64,000 nucleotides of DNA, from NCBI RefSeq assembly GCF_003018115.1, contig NZ_CP027457.1; one strand, written 5' to 3'. Source of the DNA: Escherichia coli (GTDB taxonomy: Bacteria; Pseudomonadota; Gammaproteobacteria; Enterobacterales; Enterobacteriaceae). Position 1 is the stretch's first letter. Each line of letters starts with the position of its first letter. The translations under genes were made by a program, and so were the position numbers. A model generated the notes under the pieces. The model saw only the letters and a program-made list of their open reading frames with translations, had not been told where the DNA came from and did not search any database. This document shows positions 15,230 through 54,156 of this stretch, piece after piece.

Positions 15230-15244
15230 TTAGTATAAAAAAGC
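15230..15244. repeat. attR: Prophage attachment site core, attR (P-O-B' read on the minus strand)
   Basis: Exact lambda 15-bp core GCTTTTTTATACTAA (as reverse complement) with bacterial B' arm CTTGAGCGAAACG on the ybhB side and lambda-like P arm on the phage side. Confidence 0.85.
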
Positions 15245-15691
15245 TGAATGCGAAACAGCAAACCAAATAATATCAATACGTTACAATGCATTTAGTCTAA
15301 AAAATAGACTGCATAATGCTACAAAACACAACATATCCAGTCACTATGAATCAACTACTTAGATGGTATTAGTGACCTGTAACAGAGCATTAGCGCAAGG
15401 TGATTTTTTGTCTTCTTGCGCTAATTTTTTGTCAACACACTGGGTTAGCTAAATTTACAACCATGCTCAGTATCTCGATAAGCGCAGAGAAATGATGCAG
15501 TGGTGGGCAGACTGGTTTGATAGGAAGGTGTAACCTGAAAGTAGCACACAGCCTTTATTCCGTTTACCAGGCTTTGTGCTATAACTCTTGCATAACATCA
15601 TTATTAACATCAATTTCCATTCAAATTGATTTTATTTAATCTAAATTAACAAAATGTAATCCTCATTTAAACGCATATTTAAAATCATTAT

Positions 15692-16756
15692 CTATTTCAC
15701 AAGCATATTTTTATTATTTCTTTTGAAAACAACATTGGTTAACAACCTTATTACAGGTTTTTCTAAGTAGTAACTAAATATCATTGACGTTATTAAAGCG
15801 AAGATAATCATTGCAGCATAAAGGATAATTGCTCCTGTATAGTCGGTTATTTTATAACCAATGCATCTTAAAAAGGTTGAAAGCACAATGAAAGAAATTG
15901 TATGAATCAAATATATAGAATACGAAGCATCCCCAAGCTTCATAAGTGCTTTGTGAACAAATGATTTTTCATTGAAAGAAATATTTATTGCGCCAAGAAC
16001 ACATAAGAGAGATGGCACCCCTACGTATATAATACGCTCATCACCAACACCCCATACATTAGTCCCAACAATTAAAAATAGACCTACAGCAAAACATAAA
16101 ACTGATAGTTTTATGTTTTGAAGAATCTTTTTCTGATAAACATAGCCGCATATCATACCGAATATGAATTCAAGATGTATCGGGCTGAAAAATAATCTTT
16201 GGATAAAGTTCAAGCTGCCCCAGTTATAAAACAAGAATGTATAAGTACAGAATAGGACGCCAGTGGCAACTCTTCCATATTTACCAAAAATACAGCACAT
16301 TAATGCTAGCGACATATAGAAGTAAACTTCAAAATTTAGTGTCCAACTTATTGCATAAATGGTTTCTGCCTTCCATGATTCAGATGGGTAAAACAAAAAC
16401 ATAGCGCTTGTTACAAACTTCCTGAAAGCATCATCAGGAATCTTGCCAGTTACCATTAAGGCTATAGCATAAAGCAAAAGAGACATCCAGAATGCTGGAG
16501 CTACGCGAATTAATCTTTTAATTATAAAATCACCAATACCACGATCGCTCCTCATGCACTTTCCGATAGTTATGTACATAACCATTCCAGAAATGACGAA
16601 AAATATATCAACTCCGTACTTACCGAACTGTACGAACCCCTGATCAGGGAGAATAAGTCGCGTAGATGGAACGAAGTGGTTTACTGCTACCTTGGCATGG
16701 ATGAACACTACCATCAAGGCCGCAATGCCTCGTAAATACTGAAGCCCAATAATCAT
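15692..16756 (-). CDS. Acyltransferase-3 family membrane protein, probable O-antigen acetyltransferase (seroconversion)
   Basis: 354-aa multi-TM translation MIIGLQYLRGIAALMVVFIHAKV...; located between att and tailspike as in Sf6 oac; AT-rich. Confidence 0.7.
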   Translation of the reverse strand: MIIGLQYLRGIAALMVVFIHAKVAVNHFVPSTRLILPDQGFVQFGKYGVDIFFVISGMVMYITIGKCMRSDRGIGDFIIKRLIRVAPAFWMSLLLYAIALMVTGKIPDDAFRKFVTSAMFLFYPSESWKAETIYAISWTLNFEVYFYMSLALMCCIFGKYGRVATGVLFCTYTFLFYNWGSLNFIQRLFFSPIHLEFIFGMICGYVYQKKILQNIKLSVLCFAVGLFLIVGTNVWGVGDERIIYVGVPSLLCVLGAINISFNEKSFVHKALMKLGDASYSIYLIHTISFIVLSTFLRCIGYKITDYTGAIILYAAMIIFALITSMIFSYYLEKPVIRLLTNVVFKRNNKNMLVK

Positions 16757-16767
16757 GAGGTTCTCCT

Positions 16768-16789
16768 AAAATGACATCCATGTCATTTT
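16768..16789. promoter_or_regulatory. Perfect 22-bp palindrome between the tailspike stop and the acyltransferase start
   Basis: AAAATGACATCCATGTCATTTT; possible terminator/attenuator or operator. Confidence 0.4.
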
Positions 16790-16850
16790 AGCGACTAAAC
16801 CACGATGGTAAAGATAATCATAACAACTATTCAACAGAGTAGTTTTGTGT

Positions 16851-18875
16851 TTAGTAAGCAACAAACGTTCCTGGAGATCCAGTGGCAGTGCATCGCAACC
16901 TGAATGGTGCCGTGGTTGCATTCACCAATACAAAATCCTCCCCCTTTCGCCAATAACCACCAGTTGGTATACCCTGAATCCCATTTTGACTATAACCTAA
17001 GTTGTACGTAATTTCTCTTAGGTATGGACCAATGTTTGTTTGCCAAGTTCCTGTTTCCACCCATACATTACTGTGTCGGAGTGATCTCCCCTGAAATGAA
17101 GCATTTGGTTGAGGAGTTACACCATCAACCATTAGACCAATAAATTTCATGGATCGAAGATAGCTAGGAGCTGAAGGTGAAACAGGAAATTCAAATGGCA
17201 CAGTTATTGTCGTTGTCGATAGATAATTGTTTCTGTCCCAAAATTTTATATTGATATCACCAAGATTAAACCTGTTGACATTTCTTATGTCAGCAATTCT
17301 AGAATCCATTAAAGATGGATTGTAAACAAACAAAAGATCACAATCCCCAATTGTTAAATTGTTCAAGGCTCCTTTATCACACGATAGAAACCTTACTCCC
17401 TCTATTTCTCCTGTTATTCTTCCTATAGACACCTCTTCTGCTAGAGTATTGGCGGACCTAGCATTCATAACAGACTTTGGAGTGTTACCATCTGTACCAC
17501 GAAATATATGTAAATGCTCAATATTTATTCTTGAACAATCAGCATAACTAACCGCACCAAGCCCGGTTCCGCCAACTTCAGCATATAGTATTGTCATGTT
17601 TGCATCTGTTGCACCAGCGATAGCTTCTTCACTTCCATCATAGTGGAAATAATCTATATGTATGCGACCACCTCCGTATATGCCATTGTCTGCACAATTT
17701 TTTAGATACATTCTGTTTACTGTTACTTCGATATCCTGCGCTGAATTAAGTATAGAACAACAGTCTACGGCAGATATTGAATTAATAATGTTATTTTTCG
17801 ACCCGTCAAAAAAATGCAGCAGTTGAGGCATAGAAGCATTGCTGTTACCAGTATTTACACAATTGTATCCTCTTATGACCCCAACAACATTATTGGAACC
17901 CTTGAACTGTATTCCAATTACACCAGTACCTGAACCAGATGGCGCGTAAAGCCCAGTTATATACACTGATTTAAAGGTATTGTTACTACCAGATACCCTG
18001 ATAGGCATGCAAGCTGTTTCATTGGCATCAATATTTAGATTAAAATATCCTTTTTCTTTAGTTATATTTACAATATTTCCATAAGTTGGTGATGTTGTAA
18101 TTAACTTGCCGTCATTAATACAATTAATTGAACGGGCTACAGAGGTTGTTCCTGTAAGTTTAATTGTAATCCCGTCTATCAGCACAGGACACCCAGGATA
18201 AGACATTGCAGAGTTGAATAGTTCTGTTTGGTCAACATCGCAACTATCTACAAGGCCTAAAGATTGTGCCTTAACTTCAGTTTGATATACAATAGCCTTA
18301 AGTCCATTTTCTATATCATGAATATTTGAATTATCTTGTATGCCTGAGCTAGATATTATATATACACAACTGCCACCGTCACCTTTTGAAAAAAAACCCC
18401 TCGTCTCAACAATATCGCCTTCCTTTAAATTCATATCTGATTTCATATCAGATACGGTGTCATATTTTCGACCATAATGTGATGAAAGACCTCCAATAAT
18501 AGCATATCCATTGCTACTTGATAAATCTACCCTTAGCCGGTCAGGGTCATACTTCAGCACATTAGGAAAATAGAACTGCTGTGCACCATACGCATCATAA
18601 ACAGCCATAGAATGGCCTTGCACGGTAACGAATTTGGCAATCTGTCCGTTATATACAGGGTAACCAGCAGCGTTAATGATGATTGGTTGAGAAACAGGAA
18701 CGTGAGAACCGTCTTCATTCTCTACATAAACCTGAATCTGGTTTTCAGGATTTACAGGGTCAGTGTCAATTTTACCGATATAAATTTTGCCATTGGCAAC
18801 CGCTTTAAAAGAACGCGCCATAGTGAAGAGTTGCGAAGGCATGCTTACCACAACATTTGCGGTGATATCTGACAT
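16851..18875 (-). CDS. Tailspike protein with P22 gp9-like N-terminal head-binding domain and divergent receptor-binding domain
   Basis: N-terminus [59 protein letters not shown] closely matches P22 tailspike; remainder unrelated. Confidence 0.85.
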
Positions 18876-18996
18876 TTCATTGCTCCAGACGAATGATATG
18901 ATGCAACCATGATGTGATTGCATACCGAAATGGTACTATTGAGTATTTATCCAGTAGGTTACGATGCCATTCCACCCAACTGGTGAGGCATCAAGG

Positions 18997-19263
18997 ATGT
19001 ACAGCAAATACGACGAGGCGCAGTTTCACTTGAGACTTCCGCATGAACTCCACGCGAAAATTAAGCAGCGTGCGAAGATGAATAACAGGTCGCTGAACTC
19101 AGAGATAATTGCAGCGATTGAAGAATCATTGGCTAAACAAAGCTCTGCACCAGTTTACATTGACGATGCAGAGCGTATGGCAGAACAACAATCCGATATA
19201 GTTAAGAAAATGGTTTTTGAAACGCTTAAGACCATGTATAGCAATAATAAAAAGGAAACATAG
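18997..19263 (+). CDS. mnt: Mnt-like ribbon-helix-helix repressor (immI-type)
   Basis: Translation MYSKYDEAQFHLRLPHELHAKIKQRAKMNNRSLNSEIIAAIEESLAK... resembles P22 Mnt/Arc family. Confidence 0.65.
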   Translation: MYSKYDEAQFHLRLPHELHAKIKQRAKMNNRSLNSEIIAAIEESLAKQSSAPVYIDDAERMAEQQSDIVKKMVFETLKTMYSNNKKET

Positions 19264-19333
19264 AAATCTAGTTTCCGACTAAAATGGCATTGCCTTCATG
19301 ATATCCTGTGAAAAACTAAGGAGAGTTAACCAT

Positions 19334-19819
19334 ATGAAAAAATCACTGTTAATTATCCCACTTCTGCTGGTTGGATGCGCAAAAGTAAGTGACTATCAAG
19401 CAAGTTGCGAACAACGCTATCAAAAGCTTAGCGATATGGCTAATTGCCTTGATGCCAGTGTGAAGAACGACTCACGCATGGCATCAGCACCAACACCTAA
19501 GCTGTATGTCCTTGCTGCAAAGGTGCTCGGGCAAGGTGTCGATGAAGGAAAGATAAGTGACGCACAGGCAAGACTTGAGCTTCAGAATCTTTATGTTCAA
19601 TTACAAAGCCAAGAACAAGCCCAACAAATAGCACAAAGCCAAGCATTCCAGCAGGCTTTATTGAATTATCAGGCTGTAAACACAATGCAAGCGATCGAGC
19701 AAAAAGCGCGCCAGCCTGTTATAACTCAACCTTACCCAACACGCGTTGACACATATACAAACTGCAATTCAGGATTTGGAAACACGGTAACATGCAACAG
19801 TAGCAGTAACATCAGATAA
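19334..19819 (+). CDS. Lipoprotein of unknown function (in the P22 sieA position)
   Basis: Signal peptide plus lipobox MKKSLLIIPLLLVGC; Q-rich mature region. Confidence 0.55.
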   Translation: MKKSLLIIPLLLVGCAKVSDYQASCEQRYQKLSDMANCLDASVKNDSRMASAPTPKLYVLAAKVLGQGVDEGKISDAQARLELQNLYVQLQSQEQAQQIAQSQAFQQALLNYQAVNTMQAIEQKARQPVITQPYPTRVDTYTNCNSGFGNTVTCNSSSNIR

Positions 19820-19909
19820 CAATCAGCAAAGGTATCGCCTATGCAGAGGAATACGATAAACCTCGCGTTCTACATATTTGGTTTTTGCACGTTCCTGGTG
19901 TTTGAAAGG

Positions 19910-21907
19910 CTATTCTGACAACGAATCAGACTTAGCACCCTGCGTCAGTGCATTAATCGCTTTTTGCGCTTGCTGCATGGCTTTCTCAAACGCTGTCGAT
20001 CCGCGTGGGGTGTTTGCCATTCGGAGCATTGCATTTCTGAATGGCTCGCTCTCATAGGCGCGAGTAAGAAGTCCGTAGCTTACTGCTGCGCCAGTTGTCG
20101 CCGGGTTCATTGCCGTACCATACCCAATAATGAACGGGATAGTTTGCTGCCCTGTTGGTGTTGTTACTGCCGCTTTTGCAGCCTGCTGCGTGGATTGCAG
20201 ATAGTTTTTTAATCCTTTCAGATAAGCAGCGTCCTGCCCCTTAAATGTGATGCCAGTATGGTTTTGCAGGATGTTAAGCTGCCGAAGGAACTGGTCAGGG
20301 GATCCGCCAGATTTCTCCATCGCCTTTCCAATGATGCCATTGCGCATTTGCGCCCTGCCAACACGACCAACTGAGTTATACAGCGTCTTAATTTCCGATT
20401 TGTTCTTGCTGAATAGCATGTTGTTGACAACTTCCGGCGTCAGGTCGCCTTTCATGAGAACATTCTTCAGCCTGGTATTCTTTAGTTTCGCCGCTTCGTC
20501 AGCGTAGACGGCATTGGCCTGCTGATATTTACGGAGAGTATCGTTGCCAAGATTCTGACCAATGGCACCATTGATATCGTCTGTCATTGCCTTGTAAACG
20601 CGCTGAATGGCAGCATCGGAACGGTTTGGTAACACTGGTCGTTCCCCCTTCACGTCCATTCTGAACTGGCTGCGCAGATCGCTTAATTGCTTCAAATCCA
20701 GATTTACCGGACCATCAGGACCAGCATTGCGAACAAGCTCATCACGATAGGACTGAAGTTTTGAAATAGTCTCGTTATCGGCGACCTTACCAAGCTTCTG
20801 CAGGTTAGATATTTCTGTATCAATCTGCTGAATTGCTCGAGCAGGCTGGATATTGACTCCCGCCATTGCATTCTGAACCTGCTCAAGACGGTTCCCTGCA
20901 GCACGACGAATTCCTGATGTTTTCGCTTTAAGGCTGTCAATAACAACAGCTGGATCATACTCACCGAATTTATCAGCAAATCTCTGCACCAACTGGCTTC
21001 TCGCTTCCTGTTGCGTTGCTCTCATTCCGCTTGTGCCAGCCAGAGGGATATTTTCTGCTGTAGTCTGCGCCATTTTTCCGACGCGGGAAGTTGGTTGTAA
21101 CAGGTCTGTGGTGTGCAGAGGAACTCCTTCACGCTCTGCAAATCTGATAGCCTGCTGCGCTTCTGGCGCAATAGCACCGCGAACACCACGATAAGCAGCA
21201 CCTAATCCACGTCCGGCAGCGTTAATAGCACCTCCAGCCAGCACACCAACGCCTAAATCGGTAGCGAGTGCTTCCGCATCATCTTTCGCACTATTTGCAG
21301 CAAGTGATCCAACTGCGTTTTCTGCTAGAAGGCGAGTTGCCCCCTGAGCAATTCGACCAGCAAGTGTTGGTGCCTGTACCGCCGCTCTCTCAACGCCAGC
21401 AGGAGTGAGGTAAGGCAATGCTTCAGCAAATACCCTTCCCTCTGTCGTTTGTGGAGTCAGCGCACCTTGCTGAAGGCCAAAGTCCTGCTCTAATCCCTGC
21501 GTTGTTACTCGTGGTGCTGGTTGATATGTACCATCGCCAATGCCGAGTTTACCGCCAGCCCAAGCCGCCGCGCTTGTTACAGCATCGGCAACTGATGCAG
21601 GTATGTTTGCCACGTTCACGCCAGCCTGCACCAGTCCACGACCAGTCTCTTTTACTGCTTCACCAAGATCAGACATAAATCCACTTTGCTGTGGTTGTTG
21701 CTGTGCTACTGGTTGTTGTGTCTCCACTGGCTGCACAGATGGCAATGGATAGGCAGCATAGAAAGCTTGCTTAGCCTGCTCTGCATTTTCTCCGGCTTGC
21801 GGGGCCACGACTTCATTGAAGTATTGCTCCTGAGCCTGCGCTTTTTGTTCTGGTGCTAACGCCTGATACTGTGGAGAGGCGATAACATCTTTCCATGCTT
21901 TAGCCAT
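19910..21907 (-). CDS. Ejection (injection) protein, P22 gp16-like
   Basis: 665-aa protein at the end of the gp7-gp20-gp16 series; position and composition. Confidence 0.7.
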   Translation of the reverse strand: MAKAWKDVIASPQYQALAPEQKAQAQEQYFNEVVAPQAGENAEQAKQAFYAAYPLPSVQPVETQQPVAQQQPQQSGFMSDLGEAVKETGRGLVQAGVNVANIPASVADAVTSAAAWAGGKLGIGDGTYQPAPRVTTQGLEQDFGLQQGALTPQTTEGRVFAEALPYLTPAGVERAAVQAPTLAGRIAQGATRLLAENAVGSLAANSAKDDAEALATDLGVGVLAGGAINAAGRGLGAAYRGVRGAIAPEAQQAIRFAEREGVPLHTTDLLQPTSRVGKMAQTTAENIPLAGTSGMRATQQEARSQLVQRFADKFGEYDPAVVIDSLKAKTSGIRRAAGNRLEQVQNAMAGVNIQPARAIQQIDTEISNLQKLGKVADNETISKLQSYRDELVRNAGPDGPVNLDLKQLSDLRSQFRMDVKGERPVLPNRSDAAIQRVYKAMTDDINGAIGQNLGNDTLRKYQQANAVYADEAAKLKNTRLKNVLMKGDLTPEVVNNMLFSKNKSEIKTLYNSVGRVGRAQMRNGIIGKAMEKSGGSPDQFLRQLNILQNHTGITFKGQDAAYLKGLKNYLQSTQQAAKAAVTTPTGQQTIPFIIGYGTAMNPATTGAAVSYGLLTRAYESEPFRNAMLRMANTPRGSTAFEKAMQQAQKAINALTQGAKSDSLSE

Positions 21908-23295
21908 TAATCACCCCATAGTGAAGAAAAGTTACTGCTGGCTGCTGGCTGTGATACCTGTGCAGGTTGAGATTGCTTCCGCTGAGATTTACCAACATTA
22001 ACGTTATATTGTTGGTTGTAATTGTTGGTGTATTCCTGAATTTCACGAATCGACTGCTGCATAGCCTCCGGGCTTGAATAGTCAACCTGCGGCATCCCCT
22101 GAAAATACATCTTCGCTTCTGCAACGGTGTTAATACCACTGGCACCCATGTCCCTTGCTGCCGCCACACCCTGATTCTGCATTCTGCCCTGAATACGTTG
22201 TGCTGAGTTATATAACTGGCGCTGCTCTTTTCCCGTTAATCGGCTGCGAACATCAGCACCAATTGCTGGATTACCTGCACCGCCTGTCATTCCTGTCATG
22301 AAATCGAGAGCAGAAGCGTCTGCATTTGCGATCGCGTCGATATCCTTCTTCATGGCATAGTTTTGTGCTGATGCAGACGATGTTGCAGGCGCAGCGATTG
22401 AACTGGCAGGGACGCGAACCATATTCCCCTCGTTGTCGATGCCTTCGTAGAACGCATTAGCCCCAGCGCCATGAAGCTTCCCGCCTACCGTTACAGTTCT
22501 GCCATCTGATAACTGAACTGTACGCTCATCATTCCCAGCGATTCCTCTTGTTGACGCTCGCTGCATTGCCAAATCCTGACCTCGTCGCGCAGTAGAAGCA
22601 GATAAGTCCTGACCGCGCATCGTGATGTTCTGGCCTCGTGCTGTTAGCGCCTCGCCAGCCTGATTGCTGCGGATTGTCTCTGCAAGTTTCCCGCGATCAA
22701 TCTCACGACCAGCCATCTTGTCCTGAACATTGAAGTAATCAATTGGACCAAGAGCAGCCATCCCAAGGTGATCAACAAACTCACCAAATCCTGAAGGATT
22801 CTGCTGATACATCTGAGCAACGTTATTAGGGTCAACACCGACGCGCGCCAGCTCATTGGCGTTGTTTTGCAGCCATGATTGCATTGCTTCTGGAGACGAG
22901 GCCGCAAGGCGTGCGCCAGCCGCTAAGGTGCCGATAGAATTGCGCTGGTCTTCATCAATGAATCCCATGCCTTTACGAACGGATTCAATCTGGTCTGGAT
23001 ATTGAGTAGCCAACTGACGCAAAGCACCGCGATCACCAGACGCATAAGCATTAGCGTATGCCTGCTGAAATTCTTTCTGCCGCTGAGCCTGCTTTTCCTG
23101 CTGAAACACCCCCGCAATACCTGAAAGGCCTTGCAAAGCAGTCAGCCCAACATTGTTAGCGCCTGAACGCTCAATATCATTGTTCTGCCTGATAAGCTGA
23201 AGCGTATTGCCGATGTCATTTACGCTCGGAGCGTTTGAGTTGACGCCGCCGATACCAGCCAACAATCCGCCGTTTGTTCCTTGCCAAGTAGCCAT
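21907..23295 (-). CDS. Ejection protein, P22 gp20-like
   Basis: 462-aa protein; synteny with P22 gene 20. Confidence 0.7.
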
Positions 23296-23304
23296 GATTA
23301 CCCC

Positions 23305-45490: not shown

Positions 45491-45536
45491 TTAGCCATCA
45501 GCAGGACGCTGGAAGCCAAACGGAACAGATTGGCAG

Positions 45537-45990: not shown

Positions 45991-45998
45991 GGTTAATG

Positions 45999-46265
45999 AT
46001 GAAATTCAAATTGAACGATGAAGTTAAATGGTCTAGCTCATCAAACGGTGTAACGAAGGTAAAAATCGGGTTTATCGTTGAGGTGATTCCTCCTGGTGTC
46101 AACGTAAAAAAATTCGAACTAGGCCGTCTGCTAGATGCACCTGGCCTTCCGAGGAAAGAAGAGAGCTATATAGTTTGTGTAGGTCCAAGACCAGGATCTC
46201 GTGCCAAGCCAAAATATTACTGGCCGCGAGTTAATAACCTGCGTCGCTTACACGATGACAAATAG
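45999..46265 (+). CDS. Hypothetical early protein
   Basis: About 88-aa ORF immediately after N. Confidence 0.4.
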   Translation: MKFKLNDEVKWSSSSNGVTKVKIGFIVEVIPPGVNVKKFELGRLLDAPGLPRKEESYIVCVGPRPGSRAKPKYYWPRVNNLRRLHDDK

Positions 46266-46320
46266 AAGTGAGTATCCTTGTTTTACTTTTTCGCAGCAAA
46301 CCACTTATTTGAGGTGAGAT

Positions 46321-46572
46321 ATGGAATTTCATGAAAGTGCGATTTGTGATTTTCGCGCTAACGCAAATTCAGTAAAACCACAGCCAATTGCAGTTCTTTT
46401 TAAAACAATGGGTGCGTGGGCTGTTTTATGCTTCGCCGCTGATGACACTGACGCAAGAATGGCAATAGGCCAAGAGATGGAGATGGACCCGACAAACGAT
46501 GAATTCATAATTTATGGCGCTCCATCTAATTACTTACTTGATACCTGCAACATTTACAACAAGGCTGCCTGA
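46321..46572 (+). CDS. Hypothetical early protein
   Basis: 83-aa ORF. Confidence 0.4.
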   Translation: MEFHESAICDFRANANSVKPQPIAVLFKTMGAWAVLCFAADDTDARMAIGQEMEMDPTNDEFIIYGAPSNYLLDTCNIYNKAA

Positions 46573-46611
46573 TGGTGGCCTTTATTTTTGGCATAAACAA
46601 CAGAGGCTAAC

Positions 46612-46908
46612 ATGGAATTTAAAGGTACTAAAGGTAAGTGGGAAATAATGATTGATGGCGATGAGATTAAAATCATCCAGGCAGACTCACTTGAAAATGG
46701 CGCAGGCTGGCGTTCGTATATTGCAATCTGTGAGGAAGTTCAATGCATTGAAGATGCCAATCTAATAGCGGCAGCGCCTGACCTTCTCGAAGCACTTCAG
46801 TTATTACTTAAGCAAACCAAAAATAGAACAACGACAACATATCCAGAATGGTATGGAGCTGTTAATAAAGGTATCGCAGCAATCAGAAAAGCTCTTGGGG
46901 ATAAGTAA
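46612..46908 (+). CDS. Hypothetical early protein
   Basis: 98-aa ORF. Confidence 0.4.
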   Translation: MEFKGTKGKWEIMIDGDEIKIIQADSLENGAGWRSYIAICEEVQCIEDANLIAAAPDLLEALQLLLKQTKNRTTTTYPEWYGAVNKGIAAIRKALGDK

Positions 46909-47096
46909 TGAAAGTAAAAATAACTGCTTCTAATACCAGTTTTGTTAGTGTTGGTGATATTACAGAAGTAATAACAAACCATGATGGAACACAAGTTATG
47001 TGGTCTGATTTTTGTAAAAGATATGAGCGAGTCACTTGGTGTAAACTCGTATGGGGAGTCGAATACGAAGAATTACCTGAAATGCATGACGAATAA
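46908..47096 (+). CDS. Hypothetical early protein
   Basis: 62-aa ORF translationally coupled to the preceding gene. Confidence 0.35.
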   Translation: MKVKITASNTSFVSVGDITEVITNHDGTQVMWSDFCKRYERVTWCKLVWGVEYEELPEMHDE

Positions 47097-47281
47097 GCAC
47101 TGTGTATTCATTCCAACGAGTGAATACACGGAGCAATGTTGCTCGTAACTAAACAGGAGCCGACTTGTTCTGATTATTGGAAATCTTCTTTGCCCTCCAG
47201 TGTGAGGGCTTTTTTATATGCATACCAATAACGCTTCACTCGAGGCGTTTTCGTTATGCAATCAAACAGAAGGAGCATCCT

Positions 47282-47452
47282 ATGCAACAGTTCGCTATTG
47301 CAGGGGCGGCATCGGTTCGCCCTTTCAACCCGATTTTATCGGTACAGCATTCACGAAAAAACATTCTAACCGGAGCAGACTTTAAACAACCAAGAATGAA
47401 AAGTTTGCTCGAAAAGCTTTGGGATATTTTGAAACAACAAGGCCGCCCATGA
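47282..47452 (+). CDS. cIII: CIII-like protein (FtsH inhibitor)
   Basis: Translation MQQFAIAGAASVRPF...KSLLEKLWDILKQQGRP resembles lambda CIII; AAGGAG RBS. Confidence 0.7.
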   Translation: MQQFAIAGAASVRPFNPILSVQHSRKNILTGADFKQPRMKSLLEKLWDILKQQGRP

Positions 47453-47533
47453 GTTTTACAGATAGCTGGTCAGACGAAGAATTCATTCGTCAGATGAACA
47501 AAATGCTCAATCAGCACAAAGAACAGGAGAAAG

Positions 47534-47845
47534 ATGATGATTCTGACTCTGAATGATAAGCGTGAAATATCGCAAATAATCGCAAGTTTTACTGATGAAG
47601 ATTACGAACGAATCAACAGTGAAGTTGATCGCCTCTGCAAACGTTGCGACCCAATAAGCGAAATGCTTCGATCATATAAACCAGATGAACACACTAAGGA
47701 CGCTATCGACTGGCTGGAAGATGATGACTGTAACTATCAGGAAAAAGCCGCTGAATGGTTCTGGGATGCAATAACCGAAAGAGTTAAGGCTGAATATGCC
47801 TTCGCAATATTCAAACGCAGACATATTTATGGAGAAGCTGCATGA
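47534..47845 (+). CDS. Hypothetical protein upstream of recT (possible Abc2/Kil-like function)
   Basis: 103-aa acidic ORF; position analogous to anti-RecBCD/kil genes in P22 and lambda; no direct motif evidence. Confidence 0.4.
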   Translation: MMILTLNDKREISQIIASFTDEDYERINSEVDRLCKRCDPISEMLRSYKPDEHTKDAIDWLEDDDCNYQEKAAEWFWDAITERVKAEYAFAIFKRRHIYGEAA

Positions 47846-48744
47846 GCAATATCGTTGAATTCGTTAAACAGCAAGAGCAGTTATTCTGCGGAGCATTGAC
47901 TGAACAGACGGTGACATGGGCTAAGGAAAGCCAGTTTGCAATTCAGTATTTCCAGAAAAACGATTACCTGGCTAAAACAGCACTGGCAAATCCAACCAGC
48001 GCACAGAACGCCATCATCAATGTTGCGGCGATCGGCATCACCTTAAACCCGGCCAGCAAACTGGCTTATCTGGTTCCTCGCGACGGCATGGTGTGCCTTG
48101 ATATCAGTTACATGGGATTACTTCATCTTGCGCAATCGACAGGATCAATTAAGTGGGGGCAATGCAAACTGGTGTACTCAAACGACACCTATGAATCAAA
48201 TGGCCTTGATTCAGCACCAACCCACAAATACAACGCATTTGGTGAGCGAGGCTCTATTGTTGGAGGTTATTGCACGGTTAAAACAGCAGATGGTGACTAC
48301 CTGACTGAAGAAATGAGTCTGGCAGAAATTAAAGCTGTGGAAGCAACGAGCAAGGCAAAGAATGGACCGTGGAAAACATTCTGGGAAGAGATGGCGCGTA
48401 AAACAATAGTTAAACGCGCCAGCAAATACTGGCCTAAAGCCCAGCGACTGGATAATGCCATTCACCTGCTTAACGAAGATGAAGGTGTGCATCAGGAACC
48501 AGTTATGCCGCACAAATCAGAGGAAGATATCCGCGAAGATGAACGGAAACGCCAGCAGGAAATAATGGATAAAGCACAACTTCTTTGCGATGAAATGTCT
48601 CAGGCAGAAAACATGGATGATTTGAAGCGATATTTTGCAGAAGCATATCGCCTGACATCTGGAATGAAATTGCAGCAGAACGTACAAGCCATTTACATAG
48701 AATGCAAAGCGAAACTGGAGGTTGCCAGTGAGCAAACTGTATGA
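47842..48744 (+). CDS. recT: RecT-family single-strand annealing protein
   Basis: 300 aa; ...NGPWKTFWEEMARKTIVKRASKYWP... matches the RecT family signature region. Confidence 0.8.
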   Translation: MSNIVEFVKQQEQLFCGALTEQTVTWAKESQFAIQYFQKNDYLAKTALANPTSAQNAIINVAAIGITLNPASKLAYLVPRDGMVCLDISYMGLLHLAQSTGSIKWGQCKLVYSNDTYESNGLDSAPTHKYNAFGERGSIVGGYCTVKTADGDYLTEEMSLAEIKAVEATSKAKNGPWKTFWEEMARKTIVKRASKYWPKAQRLDNAIHLLNEDEGVHQEPVMPHKSEEDIREDERKRQQEIMDKAQLLCDEMSQAENMDDLKRYFAEAYRLTSGMKLQQNVQAIYIECKAKLEVASEQTV

Positions 48745-49210
48745 AATAGCCAATGAATACGCAAAGCTGATGGATTCAGATTTAGAGCCAGAGATGATTG
48801 CTGACACAATAGAAGGCATGGAAGGAGAATTTACCGATAAAATAGAGCAACTTCTCGCCATTATTAAAAATGAATCTGGTTATGCTGAACGCCTCAAGGA
48901 AGAGGCAAAGTCACTAAATGAGAGAGCCGCAGTAATTCAAAATAAGATTGACAGCATTATGGCGTATATAGCGTCATCGCTTGAAATGGTTGGCAAGAAA
49001 AAGATTCGAGCAGGTATTCACCAGGTAACAATCCGCAAACCGTCAGAAACTGTAGAAATCATCGACTCAAGCGCCCTTCCTCCTGAATACGTTGAATTTG
49101 AAACGACAATTAAAGCCGACAAACTGGCAATCAAACACCAACTAAAAGCAGGAATAAATATCCCCGGCGCTCAACTCAAAGTTGGGAAACCTTCACTTCT
49201 TATCAAATAA
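48728..49210 (+). CDS. Siphovirus Gp157-like protein
   Basis: About 160 aa, (M)SKLYEIANEYAKL... coiled-coil-rich; typical partner of recT modules; probable GTG start. Confidence 0.45.
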   Translation: MSKLYEIANEYAKLMDSDLEPEMIADTIEGMEGEFTDKIEQLLAIIKNESGYAERLKEEAKSLNERAAVIQNKIDSIMAYIASSLEMVGKKKIRAGIHQVTIRKPSETVEIIDSSALPPEYVEFETTIKADKLAIKHQLKAGINIPGAQLKVGKPSLLIK

Positions 49211-49221
49211 CGGTATCGCCT

Positions 49222-49536
49222 ATGAAAAAGACTCCATGGGAGAAATGGGAAGTCGATTTCTTGCGCGAAGTGGCGGCGACAATGCCAGTTGAAGTTATCG
49301 CTGAAAAACTGGAAAGGACTGAAAAAGCAGTAATGGCGAAAGCAACAAGGATTGGAGCTGACATTGTTAGCCGACTTCGTGGAAGACGCTGGACAAGAGC
49401 CGAAGTATCACTTTTCGGTAAGTTCTCCGCAGAAGAAATAGCAATTGCAACCTGCCGCTCAATTTATTCAGTAAGAGCTATGAGATACAAGCTAAAAAAA
49501 CTCGATGAAGAAAGAGCAGGCATACGAATAAATTAA
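49222..49536 (+). CDS. Hypothetical protein
   Basis: 104-aa ORF. Confidence 0.4.
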   Translation: MKKTPWEKWEVDFLREVAATMPVEVIAEKLERTEKAVMAKATRIGADIVSRLRGRRWTRAEVSLFGKFSAEEIAIATCRSIYSVRAMRYKLKKLDEERAGIRIN

Positions 49537-49552
49537 CATGGAGTAATTAACA

Positions 49553-49834
49553 ATGAAGCTAAACATAGACCTAGGCAAATATGTTATTACAGGAACCAAA
49601 CACGACCTGATTCTTAGTGAAAGAGGAATTATCAAAGAAGGTGAGAATGCAGGGAAAGAAACACTAAGCCGTATCGGTTATTACAGCAAGTTTGAGCATC
49701 TGGTTAAAGAGTTATGTAACCGTGAAATCCTGTTATCTCAGGCGCAGACGCTACAGGATATTCAGCAGCATATCGAAACTTTAGGTATGTCACTTAGCAT
49801 GGCTATTGACCAGTTCGTGGAGAGTAAATCATGA
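49553..49834 (+). CDS. Hypothetical protein
   Basis: 93-aa ORF. Confidence 0.4.
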
Positions 49835-49991
49835 GAGGACTTGCATACAATCCCGGCATTCTTCCGGCAGAAATGATTATTCGCCAACGCGTAAAACCAA
49901 TGCCATCGAGAGAGGAATTGCTTAAGAGAAATTCTTTTCCATCAGTGAATCAAAACAAATATCTGAATGCTATGTGGCGGAGTGGGAAGAA

Positions 49992-50468
49992 ATGAAACTA
50001 ATGTCACTAATTGAGATGGATGGTTTTCTGAAAGGTAAATGCATCCCACGAGATTTAAAGGTTAACGAAACAAACGCTGAATATCTGGTGCGTAAGTTCG
50101 GTGAGCTTGAATCAAAACTGGAAACGGCGTTGCGGGAGTGTCGTTCTGCTGGAATCACGATTGATAACCTTGAGGCTAAATGCGCGAAGATGGCTGCTGA
50201 AAATACCTCGCTTAAGCAATCTGAGAAGGAATTTAATGACTTTTGTCGTGAGGAGTTTAGCGAATGGGAAGATGATGTTACTGAACCCCAAGCCACCGAT
50301 GCTTTCCTGGCTGAAGTCCGGGCTAAGGCGTTTGATGACCTTTGCGCGGCGTTCGTTAAGCACGCGTCGGTGTCCGGGCTGGACGATGGCGACTGCGTTA
50401 CGGTGAAAGAGGCGACTGACGCCCTGCTGCATTGTGCGGAACAGCTTCACGAGGGAGTGCATTCATGA
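49992..50468 (+). CDS. Hypothetical coiled-coil protein
   Basis: About 158-aa ORF from [16 protein letters not shown]... Confidence 0.4.
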
Positions 50469-50707
50469 GCAACCTACTACCATGTCCATTCTGTGGCGGC
50501 GCAGCGCACGTTGCCAGCGAAGCAGATCACCCTGAATATGGCTCTGGCGGTCGATTCTATTTCGTTCGATGCGGTACGTGTCGCGCTCAATCTGGTAGCA
50601 AATATGCAGCGCCTGGAAATGACTGCGCGATTTTTTATTCAGAGGTTAGAGCAGAGTGGAATCAGCGAGCAAAGGAGGCAACCAGTGAGCGGAAAAAGAA
50701 TGACTAA
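50465..50707 (+). CDS. lar: Lar-family restriction alleviation protein
   Basis: Translation [16 protein letters not shown]...FVRCGTCRAQ... with the CPFCGG zinc motif typical of Lar. Confidence 0.65.
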   Translation: MSNLLPCPFCGGAAHVASEADHPEYGSGGRFYFVRCGTCRAQSGSKYAAPGNDCAIFYSEVRAEWNQRAKEATSERKKND

Positions 50708-50909
50708 CAGAGAGCTTGTTGATGCCGCCATTAAGCTTGCTGGTGATTTTTATTCAATGATGGGGTACACGCATCGCCCAGGCTTCAAATATTGGGAGTC
50801 TCCGCACCCGCAAGAGCAACTGGTATTTCAAATGGCCTGCCGTGCTTTTGAGGTTATTCGCGGTTCTGATGTGATGGACGCCGTTGCCGACTTGGAGGAT
50901 GAAGAGTGA
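50700..50909 (+). CDS. Hypothetical protein
   Basis: About 69-aa ORF MTNRELVDAAIKLAGDFYSMMGY...; start approximate. Confidence 0.35.
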   Translation: MTNRELVDAAIKLAGDFYSMMGYTHRPGFKYWESPHPQEQLVFQMACRAFEVIRGSDVMDAVADLEDEE

Positions 50910-51358
50910 GCAAGATTGACTATCAGGCACTGCGTGAAAAGGCAGAGAAAGCAACGTGTGGGGTGTGGTCGCTCGAATATGGAGAGGAGAGATTTGATGC
51001 TGATGATGCGCTAATTCATCGTGAAGTTGTTGGATATCTTCCCATTTGCAGAATTGAAGGAGCGCATCCAGAAAGCGGTTTCGATGAAGATTTCCAAATG
51101 GAACAGCAGGCCAATGCTGAATTCATCGCCGCAGCCAATCCAGCTACCGTGCTGGCGCTGCTGGATGAGCTGGAAGCCAAAGACAAGCGGATTGCTGACA
51201 TGGAGGCGCGGGAGGTTGTACTGCCGCGTGCGCACGATGTTCACCCATTAGGGCCGCAGGCGGCGAAAATTTTTTGTGAGTTTCACCGGAGTATCGTGAA
51301 CAGATGCGCCGATGAGATTCGCAAGGTTGGCATCAAAGTCAGCATCAAGGGGAATTAG
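50906..51358 (+). CDS. Ead/Ea22-like protein
   Basis: 150 aa; ...QANAEFIAAANPATVLALLDELEAKDKRIADMEA... typical of Ea22-family early proteins. Confidence 0.55.
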   Translation: MSKIDYQALREKAEKATCGVWSLEYGEERFDADDALIHREVVGYLPICRIEGAHPESGFDEDFQMEQQANAEFIAAANPATVLALLDELEAKDKRIADMEAREVVLPRAHDVHPLGPQAAKIFCEFHRSIVNRCADEIRKVGIKVSIKGN

Positions 51359-51362
51359 GGAT

Positions 51363-51896
51363 ATGGCTGAACTAACCAAAGAATGGCTGAAGCAAACTAT
51401 CGCTGAATACGAAGCCAATCGTGATGAATTACCGTTTGGACTGGATACCAACAGTGCCATTGGGCTTCAGGCGTTCAAGTTGGCGCTGGCATCGCTGGAA
51501 GCAGAGCCGGTGGCGTGGGAGGTAACCTTCACGCAAATTGACCGTGAATATAACACGTTCACTGGTATGTATCCTGACAAAGCAGAAGTCGAACGGTGGG
51601 TGCGTCTGCATAAAGCATGTAATTTTCGGGCAGATATAACACCGCTTTATACCGCCAAGCCAGTGCCGGTAACTCCGGATGGTTGGATAAGCTGTAGTGA
51701 GCGAATGCCGGAAAAGAATCAGAACGTGCTTATTTCGGTGAATTTCGATAGCTCTCTGGTTGAACCGCTAATATGCTCCGCACGCTATACAGGAAGCACA
51801 TTCCGGCGAGGGGAAGCAACGATTAAGCCGGGTAATGGTATTGAGCAGGCAACTCACTGGATGCCGCTACCAGAACCGCCGCAGGAGGCGAAATGA
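51363..51896 (+). CDS. DUF551 domain protein
   Basis: C-terminal ...WISCSERMPEKNQNVLI...THWMPLPEPP resembles DUF551. Confidence 0.5.
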   Translation: MAELTKEWLKQTIAEYEANRDELPFGLDTNSAIGLQAFKLALASLEAEPVAWEVTFTQIDREYNTFTGMYPDKAEVERWVRLHKACNFRADITPLYTAKPVPVTPDGWISCSERMPEKNQNVLISVNFDSSLVEPLICSARYTGSTFRRGEATIKPGNGIEQATHWMPLPEPPQEAK

Positions 51897-52153
51897 TGGA
51901 TGTAAAAGAGAAGGTTTTGCAGGTGATGCGTTCCCGGGCTGCCCTGCAAGATAAAGCTCTCGGCGGGGAATATCAATTCAGGATGGCAACCTGGAATCTG
52001 CGGTTGGCAATGGAGAAGGAATTTCCTGATGAAGAATGGCGTTCGGCAGATTTGCGCAAAATTCTTATGGAGCTGGCTAAAGACGGAGCAGTATCCAAAG
52101 ATACCTATGCCAGCCGGATTGGTCAGGCGGTATGGAGACTGGAGGTGCGGTAA
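51893..52153 (+). CDS. Hypothetical protein
   Basis: 86-aa ORF. Confidence 0.4.
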   Translation: MMDVKEKVLQVMRSRAALQDKALGGEYQFRMATWNLRLAMEKEFPDEEWRSADLRKILMELAKDGAVSKDTYASRIGQAVWRLEVR

Positions 52154-52247
52154 TGGCTAACCTGCAACTTGCCGTCAAAGGTGAATAACAATCCTCGCAC
52201 TCGCGGGGATTTCTTTTATCTGAACTCGCTATGGCGGGTTTTGTTTT

Positions 52248-52559
52248 ATGGAGATGATTATGGCCTATTCAACATTCAACCCTTTAACGTTACAGAAATA
52301 CCAGACAGACCCTGAAGATTTATGCTCACTGTGTGGCGGAAATCATGGTAAAGCAGCCATGATCGAATGTAAGGACAAAATCCACATTTGCCTTAATTGC
52401 GTTGATGTCCTCGTTGATATCAAAAATGAAAGAGAAGATAAAAAGCGTAGCGAGGCTATTCGCGCCTTAGATTCATGGATGCGAGATGGGTATAGTGCTG
52501 CGCAAATTTATGACTTAGCCATTTCAAAAGGCGAAATACCAGGTGTGCGAATCGAATAA
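52248..52559 (+). CDS. Hypothetical cysteine-containing protein
   Basis: 103-aa ORF with CxxC...CxxC. Confidence 0.4.
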   Translation: MEMIMAYSTFNPLTLQKYQTDPEDLCSLCGGNHGKAAMIECKDKIHICLNCVDVLVDIKNEREDKKRSEAIRALDSWMRDGYSAAQIYDLAISKGEIPGVRIE

Positions 52560-52594
52560 GAAGCGCACTCAAGCATCTTTTGGAGAAATCACAA

Positions 52595-52762
52595 ATGCAC
52601 TTCCGAGTCACAGGTGAATGGAATGGAGAGCCATTCAACAGAGTTATCGAAGCAGAGAACATCAATGACTGCTATGACCACTGGATGATATGGGCGCAGA
52701 TAGCACATGCAGAAGTAACCAATATTCGAATTGAAGAACTGAAAGAACACCAAGCCGCCTGA
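52595..52762 (+). CDS. Hypothetical small protein
   Basis: 55-aa ORF MHFRVTGEWNGEPF... with GGAG RBS. Confidence 0.35.
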   Translation: MHFRVTGEWNGEPFNRVIEAENINDCYDHWMIWAQIAHAEVTNIRIEELKEHQAA

Positions 52763-52801
52763 TGGCGGTTTTTTCTTGCGTGTAATTGCGGAGACTTTGC
52801 G

Positions 52802-53020
52802 ATGTACTTGACACTTCAGGAGTGGAACGCACGCCAGCGACGCCCAAGAAGCCTTGAAACAGTTCGTCGATGGGTGCGCGAATGCAGGATATTCCCACCA
52901 CCGGTTAAGGATGGAAGAGAGTATCTGTTCCACGAATCAGCGGTAAAGGTTGACTTAAATCGACCAGTAACAGGTAGCCTTTTGAAGAGGATCAGAAATG
53001 GGAAGAAGGCGAAGTCATGA
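52802..53020 (+). CDS. xis: Excisionase Xis (lambda-type)
   Basis: 72-aa translation MYLTLQEWNARQRRPRSLETVRRWVRECRIFPPPVKDGREYLFHESAVKVDL... matches lambda Xis. Confidence 0.95.
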   Translation: MYLTLQEWNARQRRPRSLETVRRWVRECRIFPPPVKDGREYLFHESAVKVDLNRPVTGSLLKRIRNGKKAKS

Positions 53021-54068
53021 GCGCCGGGATTTACCCCCTAACCTTTATATAAGAAACAATGGATATTACTGCTACAGGGACCCAAGGACGGGTAAAGAGT
53101 TCGGATTAGGCAGAGACAGGAGGATAGCAATCACTGAAGCTATACAGGCCAACATTGAGTTATTTTCAGGACACAAACACAAGCCTCTGACAGCGAGAAT
53201 CAACAGTGATAATTCTGTTACGTTACATTCATGGCTTGATCGCTACGAAAAAATCCTCGCCAGCAGAGGAATCAAGCAGAAGACACTCATAAATTACATG
53301 AGCAAAATTAAAGCAATAAGGAGGGGGCTGCCTGATGTTCCACTTGAAGACATCACCACAAAAGAAATTGCGGCAATGCTCAATGGATACATAGACGAGG
53401 GCAAGGCGGCATCAGCCAAGTTAATCAGATCAACACTGAGCGATGCATTCCGAGAGGCTATAGCTGAAGGCCATATAACAACAAACCCGGTCGCTGCTAC
53501 TCGCGCAGCAAAATCAGAGGTAAGGAGATCAAGGCTTACGGCTGACGAATACCTGAAAATTTATCAAGCAGCAGAATCATCACCATGTTGGTTAAGACTT
53601 GCAATGGAACTGGCTGTTGTTACCGGACAGCGAGTTGGTGATTTATGCGAAATGAAGTGGTCTGATATCGTAGATGGATATCTTTATGTCGAGCAAAGCA
53701 AAACAGGCGTAAAAATTGCCATCCCAACAGCATTGCATGTTGATGCTCTCGGAATATCAATGAAGGAAACACTTGATAAATGCAAAGAGATTCTTGGCGG
53801 AGAAACCATAATTGCATCTACTCGTCGTGAACCGCTTTCATCCGGCACAGTATCAAGGTATTTTATGCGCGCACGAAAAGCATCAGGTCTTTCCTTCGAA
53901 GGGGATCCGCCTACCTTTCACGAGTTGCGCAGTTTGTCTGCAAGACTCTATGAGAAGCAGATAAGCGATAAGTTTGCTCAACATCTTCTCGGGCATAAGT
54001 CGGACACCATGGCATCACAGTATCGTGATGACAGAGGCAGGGAGTGGGACAAAATTGAAATCAAATAA
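52998..54068 (+). CDS. int: Integrase Int (tyrosine recombinase, lambda-type)
   Basis: 356-aa translation MGRRRSHERRDLPPNLYIRNNGYYCYRDPRTGKEFGLGRDRRIAITEAIQANIELF... matches lambda Int. Confidence 0.97.
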   Translation: MGRRRSHERRDLPPNLYIRNNGYYCYRDPRTGKEFGLGRDRRIAITEAIQANIELFSGHKHKPLTARINSDNSVTLHSWLDRYEKILASRGIKQKTLINYMSKIKAIRRGLPDVPLEDITTKEIAAMLNGYIDEGKAASAKLIRSTLSDAFREAIAEGHITTNPVAATRAAKSEVRRSRLTADEYLKIYQAAESSPCWLRLAMELAVVTGQRVGDLCEMKWSDIVDGYLYVEQSKTGVKIAIPTALHVDALGISMKETLDKCKEILGGETIIASTRREPLSSGTVSRYFMRARKASGLSFEGDPPTFHELRSLSARLYEKQISDKFAQHLLGHKSDTMASQYRDDRGREWDKIEIK

Positions 54069-54141
54069 TGATTTTATTTTGACTGATAGTGACCTGTTCG
54101 TTGCAACAAATTGATAAGCAATGCTTTTTTATAATGCCAAC

Positions 54142-54156
54142 TTAGTATAAAAAAGC
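54142..54156. repeat. attL: Prophage attachment site core, attL (B-O-P' read on the minus strand)
   Basis: 15-bp lambda core (as reverse complement) with lambda-like P' arm between core and int and bacterial arm on the ybhC side. Confidence 0.85.

Follow-up and report, generated by a model that had tools for sequence, protein, structure and literature searches.

An intact-looking P22-like prophage of mosaic composition at attB(lambda) of Escherichia coli

The stretch of 64,000 nucleotides of E. coli DNA analysed here (the window) very probably carries an intact-looking, temperate prophage of 38,912 bp plus a duplicated 15-bp core, which by its sequence would be a P22-like podovirus (short-tailed) residing at attB(lambda). 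We place it with high confidence in the group of lambdoid phages of E. coli formed by HK620, IME10, Gally and JEP4, and take a lambda-type Int to have inserted it between ybhB on the bio side and ybhC on the gal side. As judged by comparison with known phages, the prophage unites known modules, each with relatives at 93–99% identity, in a new assortment; combined in it are a lambda int/att module, an HK620 immunity region, a P22-type capsid with pac, Gally-type injection genes and an Sf6-type needle knob. The mosaic would have arisen by ordinary lambdoid module exchange, of which it is a clean, well-bounded case, with little weight beyond cataloguing. The junctions and the integration genes are, in window positions:

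15230–15244, minus strand: att core at the bio-side junction (POB'-type, equivalent to lambda attR); exact core, the host side running into ybhB
15245–15480, minus strand: P arm of attP, aligned to lambda 27490–27723; distal part near lambda, core-proximal part diverged
52802–54068, plus strand: lambda-type xis (52802–53020) and int (52998–54068); 98.6% and 99.2% amino acid identity and 97.8% nucleotide identity to lambda
54069–54156, minus strand: P' arm and att core (54142–54156) at the gal-side junction (BOP'-type, equivalent to lambda attL), adjoining ybhC; P' identical to lambda, core exact

The 15-bp lambda core GCTTTTTTATACTAA (minus strand) is present as an exact copy at 15230–15244 and again at 54142–54156, with 0 matches in 100 shuffles, as expected from the original prediction that it forms direct repeats at both ends. 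Deletion of the DNA between the cores rebuilt an empty site that is found as contiguous ybhB-ybhC, at 99.9% identity, in 3,492 of 5,426 complete E. coli genomes; the repeats therefore bound one clean insertion, in agreement with the single contiguous element that had been proposed. Chromosomal site and orientation are shared with lambda, int lying toward gal. A scan for tRNA genes was negative, and a search of Rfam at gathering thresholds gave no RNA family within the prophage, the only hit being a Moco riboswitch in the flank. The idea that one known phage or genome contains the entire element was rejected, and with it the reading of the region as a known phage lacking mosaic junctions: in 50,697 phage records and 5,426 complete E. 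coli genomes, nucleotide coverage of the element never exceeded ~51% and in no case reached 80% of either half. Coverage of the element was 51% for Gally, 48% for IME10, 42% for 611R6, 41% for P22, 40% for JEP4 and 29% for HK620. Relative to an ICTV-style threshold for the genus Lederbergvirus (coverage x identity reaching ~70% or more against a classified member, taken over the full genome), values against the references tested fall below the line, and the prophage is P22-like by gene content.

The integration proteins are as close to lambda as had been anticipated, Int at 99.2% over 356 of 356 residues and Xis at 98.6% over 72 of 72. The lambda-like P and P' arms of the original prediction held in part: P' is identical to lambda and the distal P arm (P1, H1, P2) differs by 1 mismatch and 1 indel, but the core-proximal P arm (lambda 27645–27723, the segment of Xis X1/X1.5/X2, Fis F and IHF-H2) has diverged. 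The alignment to lambda shows the full set of arm-type Int sites (P1, P2, P'1-3), and in the diverged segment a retained H2 IHF consensus WATCAANNNNTTR and an X1 with 2 mismatches. Phages JEP4 and Huey, and likewise prophage MFDS1019527, share this variant of the proximal P arm. Three sequenced P22-like podoviruses, JEP4 (MT740315), Huey (PQ850609) and vB_EcoP-720R6 (ON470605), carry the lambda-type int-xis-attP at 98% nucleotide identity, JEP4 and Huey with an identical 15-bp core. They are not otherwise close, since the nucleotide alignment takes in only 40% of the element for JEP4 and 27% for Huey, and JEP4, Huey, 720R6 and phiHS3 differ from it in coat and portal types, Q (shorter in JEP4 and Huey), immunity and tailspikes. 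Other P22-like prophages lie at ybhB/ybhC in the E. coli genomes MFDS1019527 and ESC818, and the P22-like phage phiHS3 has been shown experimentally to integrate upstream of ybhC and to complete the integration/excision cycle (bioRxiv 10.64898/2026.05.19.726188). Gally was considered as a further P22-like phage at attB(lambda) and rejected; it encodes an HK022-type Int (75% amino acid identity) and integrates between torS and torT (PMC9928086). Within these comparisons int-xis-att is the sole specifically lambda module of the prophage, and P22-like phages carried such a module already.

Replication, late control and lysis are encoded on the minus strand, as follows:

34261–34503, minus strand: P22 orf80-like DUF2560 gene, 97.5% to the P22 protein (phrog_571/phrog_518 are listed for the gene pair 34261–35255)
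34713–35255, minus strand: Rha-family regulator, 56% to the P22 protein (second gene of that pair)
35602–36039, minus strand: P22-type spanins, Rz with embedded Rz1 (35655–35840); 91% and 95% to P22 gp15/Rz1
36036–36819, minus strand: lambda/HK620-type endolysin R (36036–36512; 98.1% to lambda, 99.4% to HK620) and holin S (36496–36819; 99.1% to each)
36820–37495, minus strand: late control region with pR', qut, 6S RNA and tR'; 661 of 678 aligned positions equal lambda 44510–45186 (97.5%)
37496–38119, minus strand: Q antiterminator; 99.0% to lambda Q, 98.6% to HK620 Q, 97.1% to P22 gp23
38116–40853, minus strand: nin region with NinH, RusA, DUF1364, NinF, NinX-like, NinE, NinB and small ORFs, named from nucleotide and protein comparison, PHROG and PGAP names at homologous loci
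41150–43344, minus strand: replication pair, a DnaB-type helicase (41150–42526) and an O/gp18-type initiator (42523–43344), from protein comparison

In the late control region the start codon of orf-64 is changed from ATG to ATA relative to lambda. Q, S and R had been described as essentially lambda-identical, and at 99.0%, 99.1% and 98.1% they are; the same description failed for Rz, since Rz and Rz1 have 57% and 41% identity to lambda, against 91% and 95% to P22 gp15/Rz1. With Q at 97.1% to P22 gp23 and S and R at 99% to HK620, a podovirus under a lambda-type Q is normal for P22 and its E. coli relatives. The replication pair, proposed to be of the P22 gene-18/gene-12 type, is clearly so for the helicase (90.4% to P22 gp12 and 99.3% to Gally), but the initiator has only 50.6% identity to P22 gp18 and 41% to lambda O. 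A homologue of lambda P was not found in the prophage.

These comparisons bear on how the lambda-like and P22-like parts came together. One mosaic prophage with a lambda int, a P22-like virion and a non-lambda immunity is what we find, but the claim that lambda modules were fused to P22-like modules overstates the case, because Q, S and R are equally HK620/P22-like, Rz/Rz1 is of the P22 type, int-xis-attP is known in P22-like phages and the site is already used by them. A local version of such an event, in which a P22-like phage took int, xis, att, Q, S and R from a resident lambda-like prophage at attB(lambda), would account for the sharp edges of the lambda-identical segments (52578–54156 and 35791–38129), and residents at this site are common, the attB(lambda) flanks being separated in ~36% of complete E. 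coli genomes (n=5,426). We nonetheless regard it as highly improbable: this int-xis-attP is already found in the free phages JEP4, Huey and 720R6, its proximal P arm in the same form that departs from lambda, and for Q, S and R the matches to HK620 and to P22 gp23 are just as near. The presence of the module in free P22-like phages and the shared Q, S and R indicate that it circulates in the P22-like group, the recombination being old and shared, not local.

The virion and packaging genes, together with the two genes at the left of the prophage and the two plus-strand genes among them, are:

15692–16756, minus strand: O-acetyltransferase (Acyl_transf_3 family), candidate lysogenic-conversion gene; phrog_3333, E=2.5e-49, and PF01757 on the L013 homologue
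16851–18875, minus strand: tailspike of 674 aa with a P22-type head-binding domain (PF09008) and a rare receptor domain
18964–19263, plus strand: Mnt/Arc-family repressor, immI remnant; 47% to P22 Mnt, phrog_795 and Arc-like families
19298–19819, plus strand: 173-aa protein of unknown function at the P22 sieA position; phrog_6067, inside the 96.7% Gally match, no PADLOC match
19910–21907, minus strand: ejection protein gp16, 33% to P22, open frame
21907–23295, minus strand: ejection protein gp20, 67% to P22, open frame
23305–23997, minus strand: ejection protein gp7, 83% to P22, open frame
24000–24455, minus strand: gp14, open frame
24455–25303, minus strand: tail needle gp26 with Sf6-type knob (phrog_1030, tail needle knob), open frame
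25303–26721, minus strand: gp10, open frame
26721–27221, minus strand: gp4, open frame
27830–34181, minus strand: coat gp5, scaffold gp8, portal gp1, TerL gp2 and TerS gp3; 73–99% amino acid identity to P22, nucleotide identity 95.8% to IME10 and 78% to P22
33893–33914, minus strand: pac site inside gene 3, an exact match to the annotated 22-bp P22 pac

The minus strand from 16851 to 34181 carries all 13 genes of the P22 order 3-2-1-8-5-4-10-26-14-7-20-16...9, at 33–99% amino acid identity to P22. Identity is highest for gp3 (99%; 99.4%), followed by gp2 and gp10 (93% each), gp14 (92%), gp8 (85%), gp7 (83%), gp1 (77%), gp5 (73%), gp20 (67%), gp4 (60%) and gp16 (33%), while gp26 matches P22 over its N-terminal 137 residues only and the tailspike over its N-terminal ~126 residues only. 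The assignment of terminase, portal, scaffold, coat, gp4/10/26, gp14, ejection proteins and tailspike as P22-like is thus borne out, for gp26 and the tailspike in their N-terminal parts. The ejection-protein region (19910–23997) has 96.7% nucleotide identity to Gally.

The control genes and the early-left region are:

43527–45990: HK620-type immunity region, 98.6% nucleotide identity to HK620
43527–43805, minus strand: cII, 97.8% to HK620
43914–44108, minus strand: cro, 100% to HK620
44139–44204: OR1-3, exact HK620 match
44215–44931, plus strand: cI, 99.6% to HK620
44949–45317, plus strand: hkaS-like gene, within the immunity region
45426–45489: OL1-3, OL1-2 exact against HK620 and OL3 with 1 mismatch
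45536–45577: nutL, exact HK620 match
45685–45990, plus strand: N, within the immunity region
45936–52762, plus strand: early-left accessory and recombination genes, with PHROG matches and 93–97% nucleotide identity to Gally and 611R6
47842–48744, plus strand: RecT (PHROG)
48722–49210, plus strand: Mu Gam-like (PHROG)
52580–52762, plus strand: lambda p35 homologue of the early-left region (PHROG)

The original prediction that the cI/cro/operator set represents an immunity different from that of lambda was correct, since cI has only 43% identity to lambda cI, and the region can now be named as that of HK620, with 5 of 6 operators and pR, pL, nutL and nutR matching exactly. The prophage is thus expected to share the immunity of HK620 and to be heteroimmune to both lambda and P22. 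Beside the mnt-like gene, comparison with P22 proteins and PHROG found neither arc nor ant. The early-left region also holds Ea22/EaA/EaD-like genes and others without known function. PADLOC found no defence system in ten accessory ORFs, and no NCBIfam family matched the tailspike, the acetyltransferase, the hkaS-like gene or other accessory genes.

Set beside each relative as a whole, the prophage resembles different phages in different parts. HK620 is near to it in the immunity region (98.6%) and in Q, S and R (98.6–99.4%), with similar gp10 and nin genes, but differs in having an IntS-type integrase in place of lambda Int, other terminase, portal and coat types (32% identity or no match), and different O and P proteins (helicase 32%), Rz and tailspike receptor domain. 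IME10 shares the P22-type packaging and procapsid genes at 95.8% nucleotide identity, whereas its integrase is IntS and its coverage 48%. Gally is alike in the ejection-protein/needle/gp10 region (93–97%), the helicase (99.3%) and the early-left genes (~94%), but differs in its HK022-type Int (75% amino acid identity), with coverage of 51%. With P22 it has in common the order and content of the virion genes, the exact pac and close proteins (gp3 99%, gp2 93%, gp12 90%, gp23 97%, Rz/Rz1 91%/95%), at ~78–81% nucleotide identity in the parts that align; P22 is set apart by an Int/Xis and att site of its own, by c2 immunity, a full immI (arc, ant), gtrABC, the gp19 lysozyme and the Erf recombinase. 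Likeness to lambda lies in int, xis, the core, the P' arm and the distal P arm, and in Q, pR'-qut-tR', S and R at 95–98% nucleotide identity, but only 11.7% of the element aligns and Rz/Rz1 is not of the lambda type. By the markers of lambda itself the prophage is no lambda: lambda head, tail, cos, P, exo, bet and gam have no match in it, and lambda O and cI only the initiator at 41% and the repressor at 43%.

The tailspike receptor domain and the O-acetyltransferase are the only rare part of the prophage. PF09008 covers tailspike residues 1–113 (E=4.5e-67) and is the sole Pfam match, and likeness to the tailspikes of P22, HK620 and Gally is confined to the N-terminus. For the receptor domain (residues ~125–674) there was no Pfam or PHROG match, and a PDB sequence search gave chance-level hits only; the C-terminal part is in none of 50,697 phage records except a Vibrio phage at 29.6%, and the domain was found in 1 of 5,426 E. 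coli genomes. AlphaFold, given an alignment of 4 sequences, yielded a weak model (mean pLDDT 56.6), which in Foldseek retrieved beta-helix tailspikes and depolymerases. The receptor domain is probably a beta-helix in this model, but with TM-scores of only 0.2–0.3 its enzymatic class is not assignable. GC content is ~38–40% in the O-acetyltransferase region. The cassette lies at attB(lambda) here, at a yfdC-side (argW-type) site in L013 and beside dacD in an O20:H12 strain, and this single O20:H12 genome is the basis for the O20 assignment. We tentatively propose, giving it slightly less than an even chance, that the receptor domain is a depolymerase of previously uncharacterised O-antigen specificity, possibly O20, paired with an O-antigen-converting O-acetyltransferase and mobile as one cassette between P22-like prophages at at least three integration sites. 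The tailspike would bind and cleave the O-antigen, possibly O20, and the O-acetyltransferase would alter that antigen in the lysogen, such that superinfection would be blocked. The cassette is thereby a candidate serotype-specific depolymerase/conversion pair, with possible use in O-antigen typing or engineering.

From the intact reading frames and conserved sites, the prophage is expected to be inducible, to excise and to produce particles. The HK620-type cI would keep it silent; SOS cleavage of cI would permit N-dependent early transcription, Int/Xis excision and then Q-dependent late transcription. A cryptic or defective prophage, intact-looking in gene set yet yielding neither excision nor particles owing to the diverged Xis/Fis P arm or to point mutations invisible at the level of ORFs, is in our view unlikely. 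The proximal P arm has indeed diverged from lambda, immI is cut down to the mnt-like gene, and relatives at the same site are damaged by frameshifts or IS (MFDS1019527; ESC818 with ISEc31 in the tailspike). However, none of the 16 virion and conversion ORFs that were checked is interrupted or truncated, the regulatory sites match HK620, lambda or P22 exactly, and the P arm variant is also that of JEP4 and Huey, which are isolated phages. For the functional prophage that we favour, headful packaging would start at pac and proceed through genes 3, 2, 1 and onward to the bio side. With this direction of packaging, DNA packaged ahead of excision would include ybhB, bio, uvrB and moa, which would amount to lateral transduction. 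Such transfer by a pac-type prophage at attB(lambda) agrees with phiHS3, which mediates lateral transduction (bioRxiv 10.64898/2026.05.19.726188).

The window carries two exact minus-strand copies of the 15-bp lambda core GCTTTTTTATACTAA, one at 15230-15244 and the other at 54142-54156; 100 shuffles gave 0 matches. The empty site was rebuilt by joining 14830-15244 to 54157-54556 (left flank, one core and right flank; 815 bp). This rebuilt attB is found unbroken at 99.9% identity, from ybhB to ybhC, in 3,492 of 5,426 complete E. coli genomes, and therefore 15230-54156 bounds one clean 38,927-bp insertion at attB(lambda), in agreement with the original prediction that att-like repeats enclose a single contiguous element. 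In the remaining ~36% of these genomes the ybhB and ybhC flanks lie apart, which suggests that attB(lambda) is often occupied in E. coli. The element is a real, well-bounded P22-like prophage, oriented with int toward ybhC (gal) and the virion genes toward ybhB (bio), the same int gal-side orientation as in a lambda lysogen; names for the flanking genes were taken from homologous loci annotated by PGAP.

The pairing of a P22-like virion with lambda's integration module is already on record for attB(lambda). The P22-like phages JEP4 (a classified member of Lederbergvirus), Huey and vB_EcoP-720R6 have int and xis genes of lambda type (98% nucleotide identity). Among E. coli strains, MFDS1019527 has a P22-like prophage that adjoins ybhB, and ESC818 has one extending from ybhB to ybhC with a lambda-type int; on the int-ybhC side, at least nine other genomes gave identical match scores. 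Experiments with the P22-like phage phiHS3 showed that it inserts upstream of ybhC and goes through a complete cycle of integration and excision (bioRxiv 10.64898/2026.05.19.726188). Gally carries an Int of HK022 type and integrates at torS/torT (PMC9928086). At 4252-7276 of the ESC818 locus, this related prophage at the same att site has a tailspike split by ISEc31, and gtrA/gtrB-type conversion genes are found instead of the acetyltransferase.

To map the modules, the element was compared by BLASTN with lambda, P22, HK620, IME10, Gally, vB_EcoP-611R6, JEP4 and Huey.

Modules of the element and their BLASTN matches (window coordinates where given)
P arm: lambda, 87%
52578-54156, int-xis-p35: lambda, 97.8%
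35791-38129, Q through R: lambda, 95%
43483-45876, immunity region: HK620, 98.6%
27792-34582, packaging and procapsid genes: IME10, 95.8%; P22, 78%
19317-26726, ejection proteins, needle and gp10: Gally, 93-97%
Helicase and initiator region: Gally, 97.6%; P22, 81%
Early-left genes: Gally and 611R6, ~94-96%

Only 11.7% of the element aligned with lambda, and the highest coverage by any one of the eight references was that of Gally (51%). In neither the phage collection nor the complete E. coli genomes did any record cover 80% or more of either half of the element. The mosaic structure that had been predicted was thus borne out by whole-genome alignment, in which no single known phage matches the whole element; as judged from these alignments, it is a new combination of individually known modules.

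At the protein level, Int, Xis, Q, S and R are lambda-like as anticipated (99.2%, 98.6%, 99.0%, 99.1% and 98.1% identity), but Rz, first read as essentially lambda-identical, is only 57% identical to lambda (Rz1 41%), compared with 91% to P22 gp15 and 95% to P22 Rz1. The proposal of a podovirus under lambda Q control held for the lambda type of late control, but not for a novel fusion. The whole Q-S interval (pR', qut, 6S and tR') matches lambda at 661 of 678 positions. Yet the element's Q also shares 97.1% identity with P22 gp23 and 98.6% with the Q of HK620, and its S and R share 99% with their HK620 counterparts. Lambda-type late control is the usual condition in P22 and in its relatives from E. 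coli. In the 37380-37385 region, the lambda orf-64 start (ATG at lambda 44621) is ATA within 6S/tR' sequence otherwise near-identical to lambda; orf-64, a small ORF located downstream of pR', is therefore not conserved here. The virion is P22-like, from 99% identity for gp3 down to 33% for gp16, except that gp26 matches P22 in its N-terminal 137 aa only and has an Sf6-type knob. Of the predicted gene-18/gene-12-type replication pair, the helicase is 90% identical to P22 gp12 and the initiator match is weaker (51% to gp18). Protein comparison to lambda found no homologue of P, exo, bet or gam; its recombination genes encode RecT and a protein resembling Mu Gam.

The rebuilt attP was aligned to lambda 27490-27890. 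The P' arm and int 3' end are identical to lambda, and the distal P arm with P1, H1 and P2 differs by one mismatch and one indel, but the core-proximal ~80 bp of the P arm (15245-15325) is strongly diverged, with the IHF H2 consensus kept. In lambda, the core-proximal arm holds X1/X1.5/X2, F and H2. Xis and Int retain 98.6% and 99.2% identity despite the diverged Xis/Fis/IHF-H2 segment. The same core and variant arm are common to the isolated phages JEP4 and Huey and the MFDS1019527 prophage, so the variant probably marks a lineage in which the module works, and is probably not a product of decay. A near-palindrome, AGTCTATTTTTTAGACT, lies in the variant arm at the lambda X1/X1.5 position.

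The immunity region is of HK620 type. Its cI, cro and cII proteins are 99.6%, 100% and 97.8% identical to those of HK620, and the HK620-annotated OR1-3, OL1-2, pR, pL, nutL and nutR are all exact, with one mismatch in OL3. In contrast, cI is 43% identical to lambda cI, as expected of the non-lambda immunity proposed earlier, and 40% to P22 c2. Homoimmunity of the prophage with HK620 is predicted, and heteroimmunity to lambda and P22. Directly 3' of cI, where lambda has rexAB, is an hkaS-like gene (44949-45317, plus strand, 122 aa; phrog_6534, function not assigned) that the lysogen probably expresses; neither PADLOC nor NCBIfam gave a match. A 173-aa phrog_6067 protein (19298-19819, plus strand), conserved in Gally, is encoded between gp16 and mnt; sieA sits at the corresponding position in P22, and this is a possible superinfection-exclusion gene.

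The single rare part of the element is its tailspike/O-acetyltransferase cassette.

Locations of the cassette
Window, 16851-18875 (tailspike) and 15692-16756 (O-acetyltransferase)
O20:H12 E. coli locus, 20214-23397
Draft-genome P22-like prophage locus, 10001-13184

The sole domain of the 674-aa tailspike is Head_binding (residues 1-113). The remaining ~550 aa had no match in Pfam, PHROG or PDB sequences and, among phage records, matched only a Vibrio phage (29.6%); the AlphaFold model is weak (mean pLDDT 56.6) and resembles beta-helix tailspikes and depolymerases. The O-acetyltransferase follows in a ~38-40% GC region. Of the complete E. coli genomes, only that of the O20:H12 strain has the pair, in a P22-like prophage adjoining dacD; an internal stop makes the acyltransferase there a pseudogene. 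An identical pair is carried by the draft-genome prophage, which has a different integrase and adjoins a formate/nitrite-transporter-family gene, presumably yfdC at an argW-side site. The cassette is thereby seen at three integration sites: attB(lambda), dacD-adjacent and yfdC-side (argW-type). In Citrobacter, an 83% identical receptor domain is joined to a different N-terminal domain. This distribution is typical of cassette exchange; specificity of the tailspike for O20 would be a guess.

Each of the 16 virion and conversion ORFs examined has an open frame and matches the reference in length. Gene 3 contains an exact copy of the 22-bp P22 pac site (33893-33914), and the unique length of 38.9 kb lies inside the 38.3-41.7 kb span of the P22-like genomes compared. 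The immI region is cut down to a Mnt-like repressor without arc or ant, likewise in Gally. Taken by its sequence, the prophage is probably functional. P22 packaging runs from pac into genes 3, 2, 1 and onward, and because of this direction in-situ packaging would run toward 15230 and then into ybhB, bio, uvrB and moa. Lateral transduction has been shown for the related phages Gally (PMC9928086) and phiHS3 (bioRxiv 10.64898/2026.05.19.726188).

In the host left flank, a stretch of 43% GC contains two minus-strand ORFs (884-1252, 122 aa; 1304-1648, 114 aa, membrane-embedded by appearance), with an MprF-flippase-like gene on one side and a membrane-protein gene on the other. NCBIfam gave no match for either ORF, and the two may form a small variable island. 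A molybdenum cofactor riboswitch (RF01055, 5517-5661, minus strand, 103 bits) lies upstream of ORF 4540-5610, which we take to be moaA, and is expected host biology.
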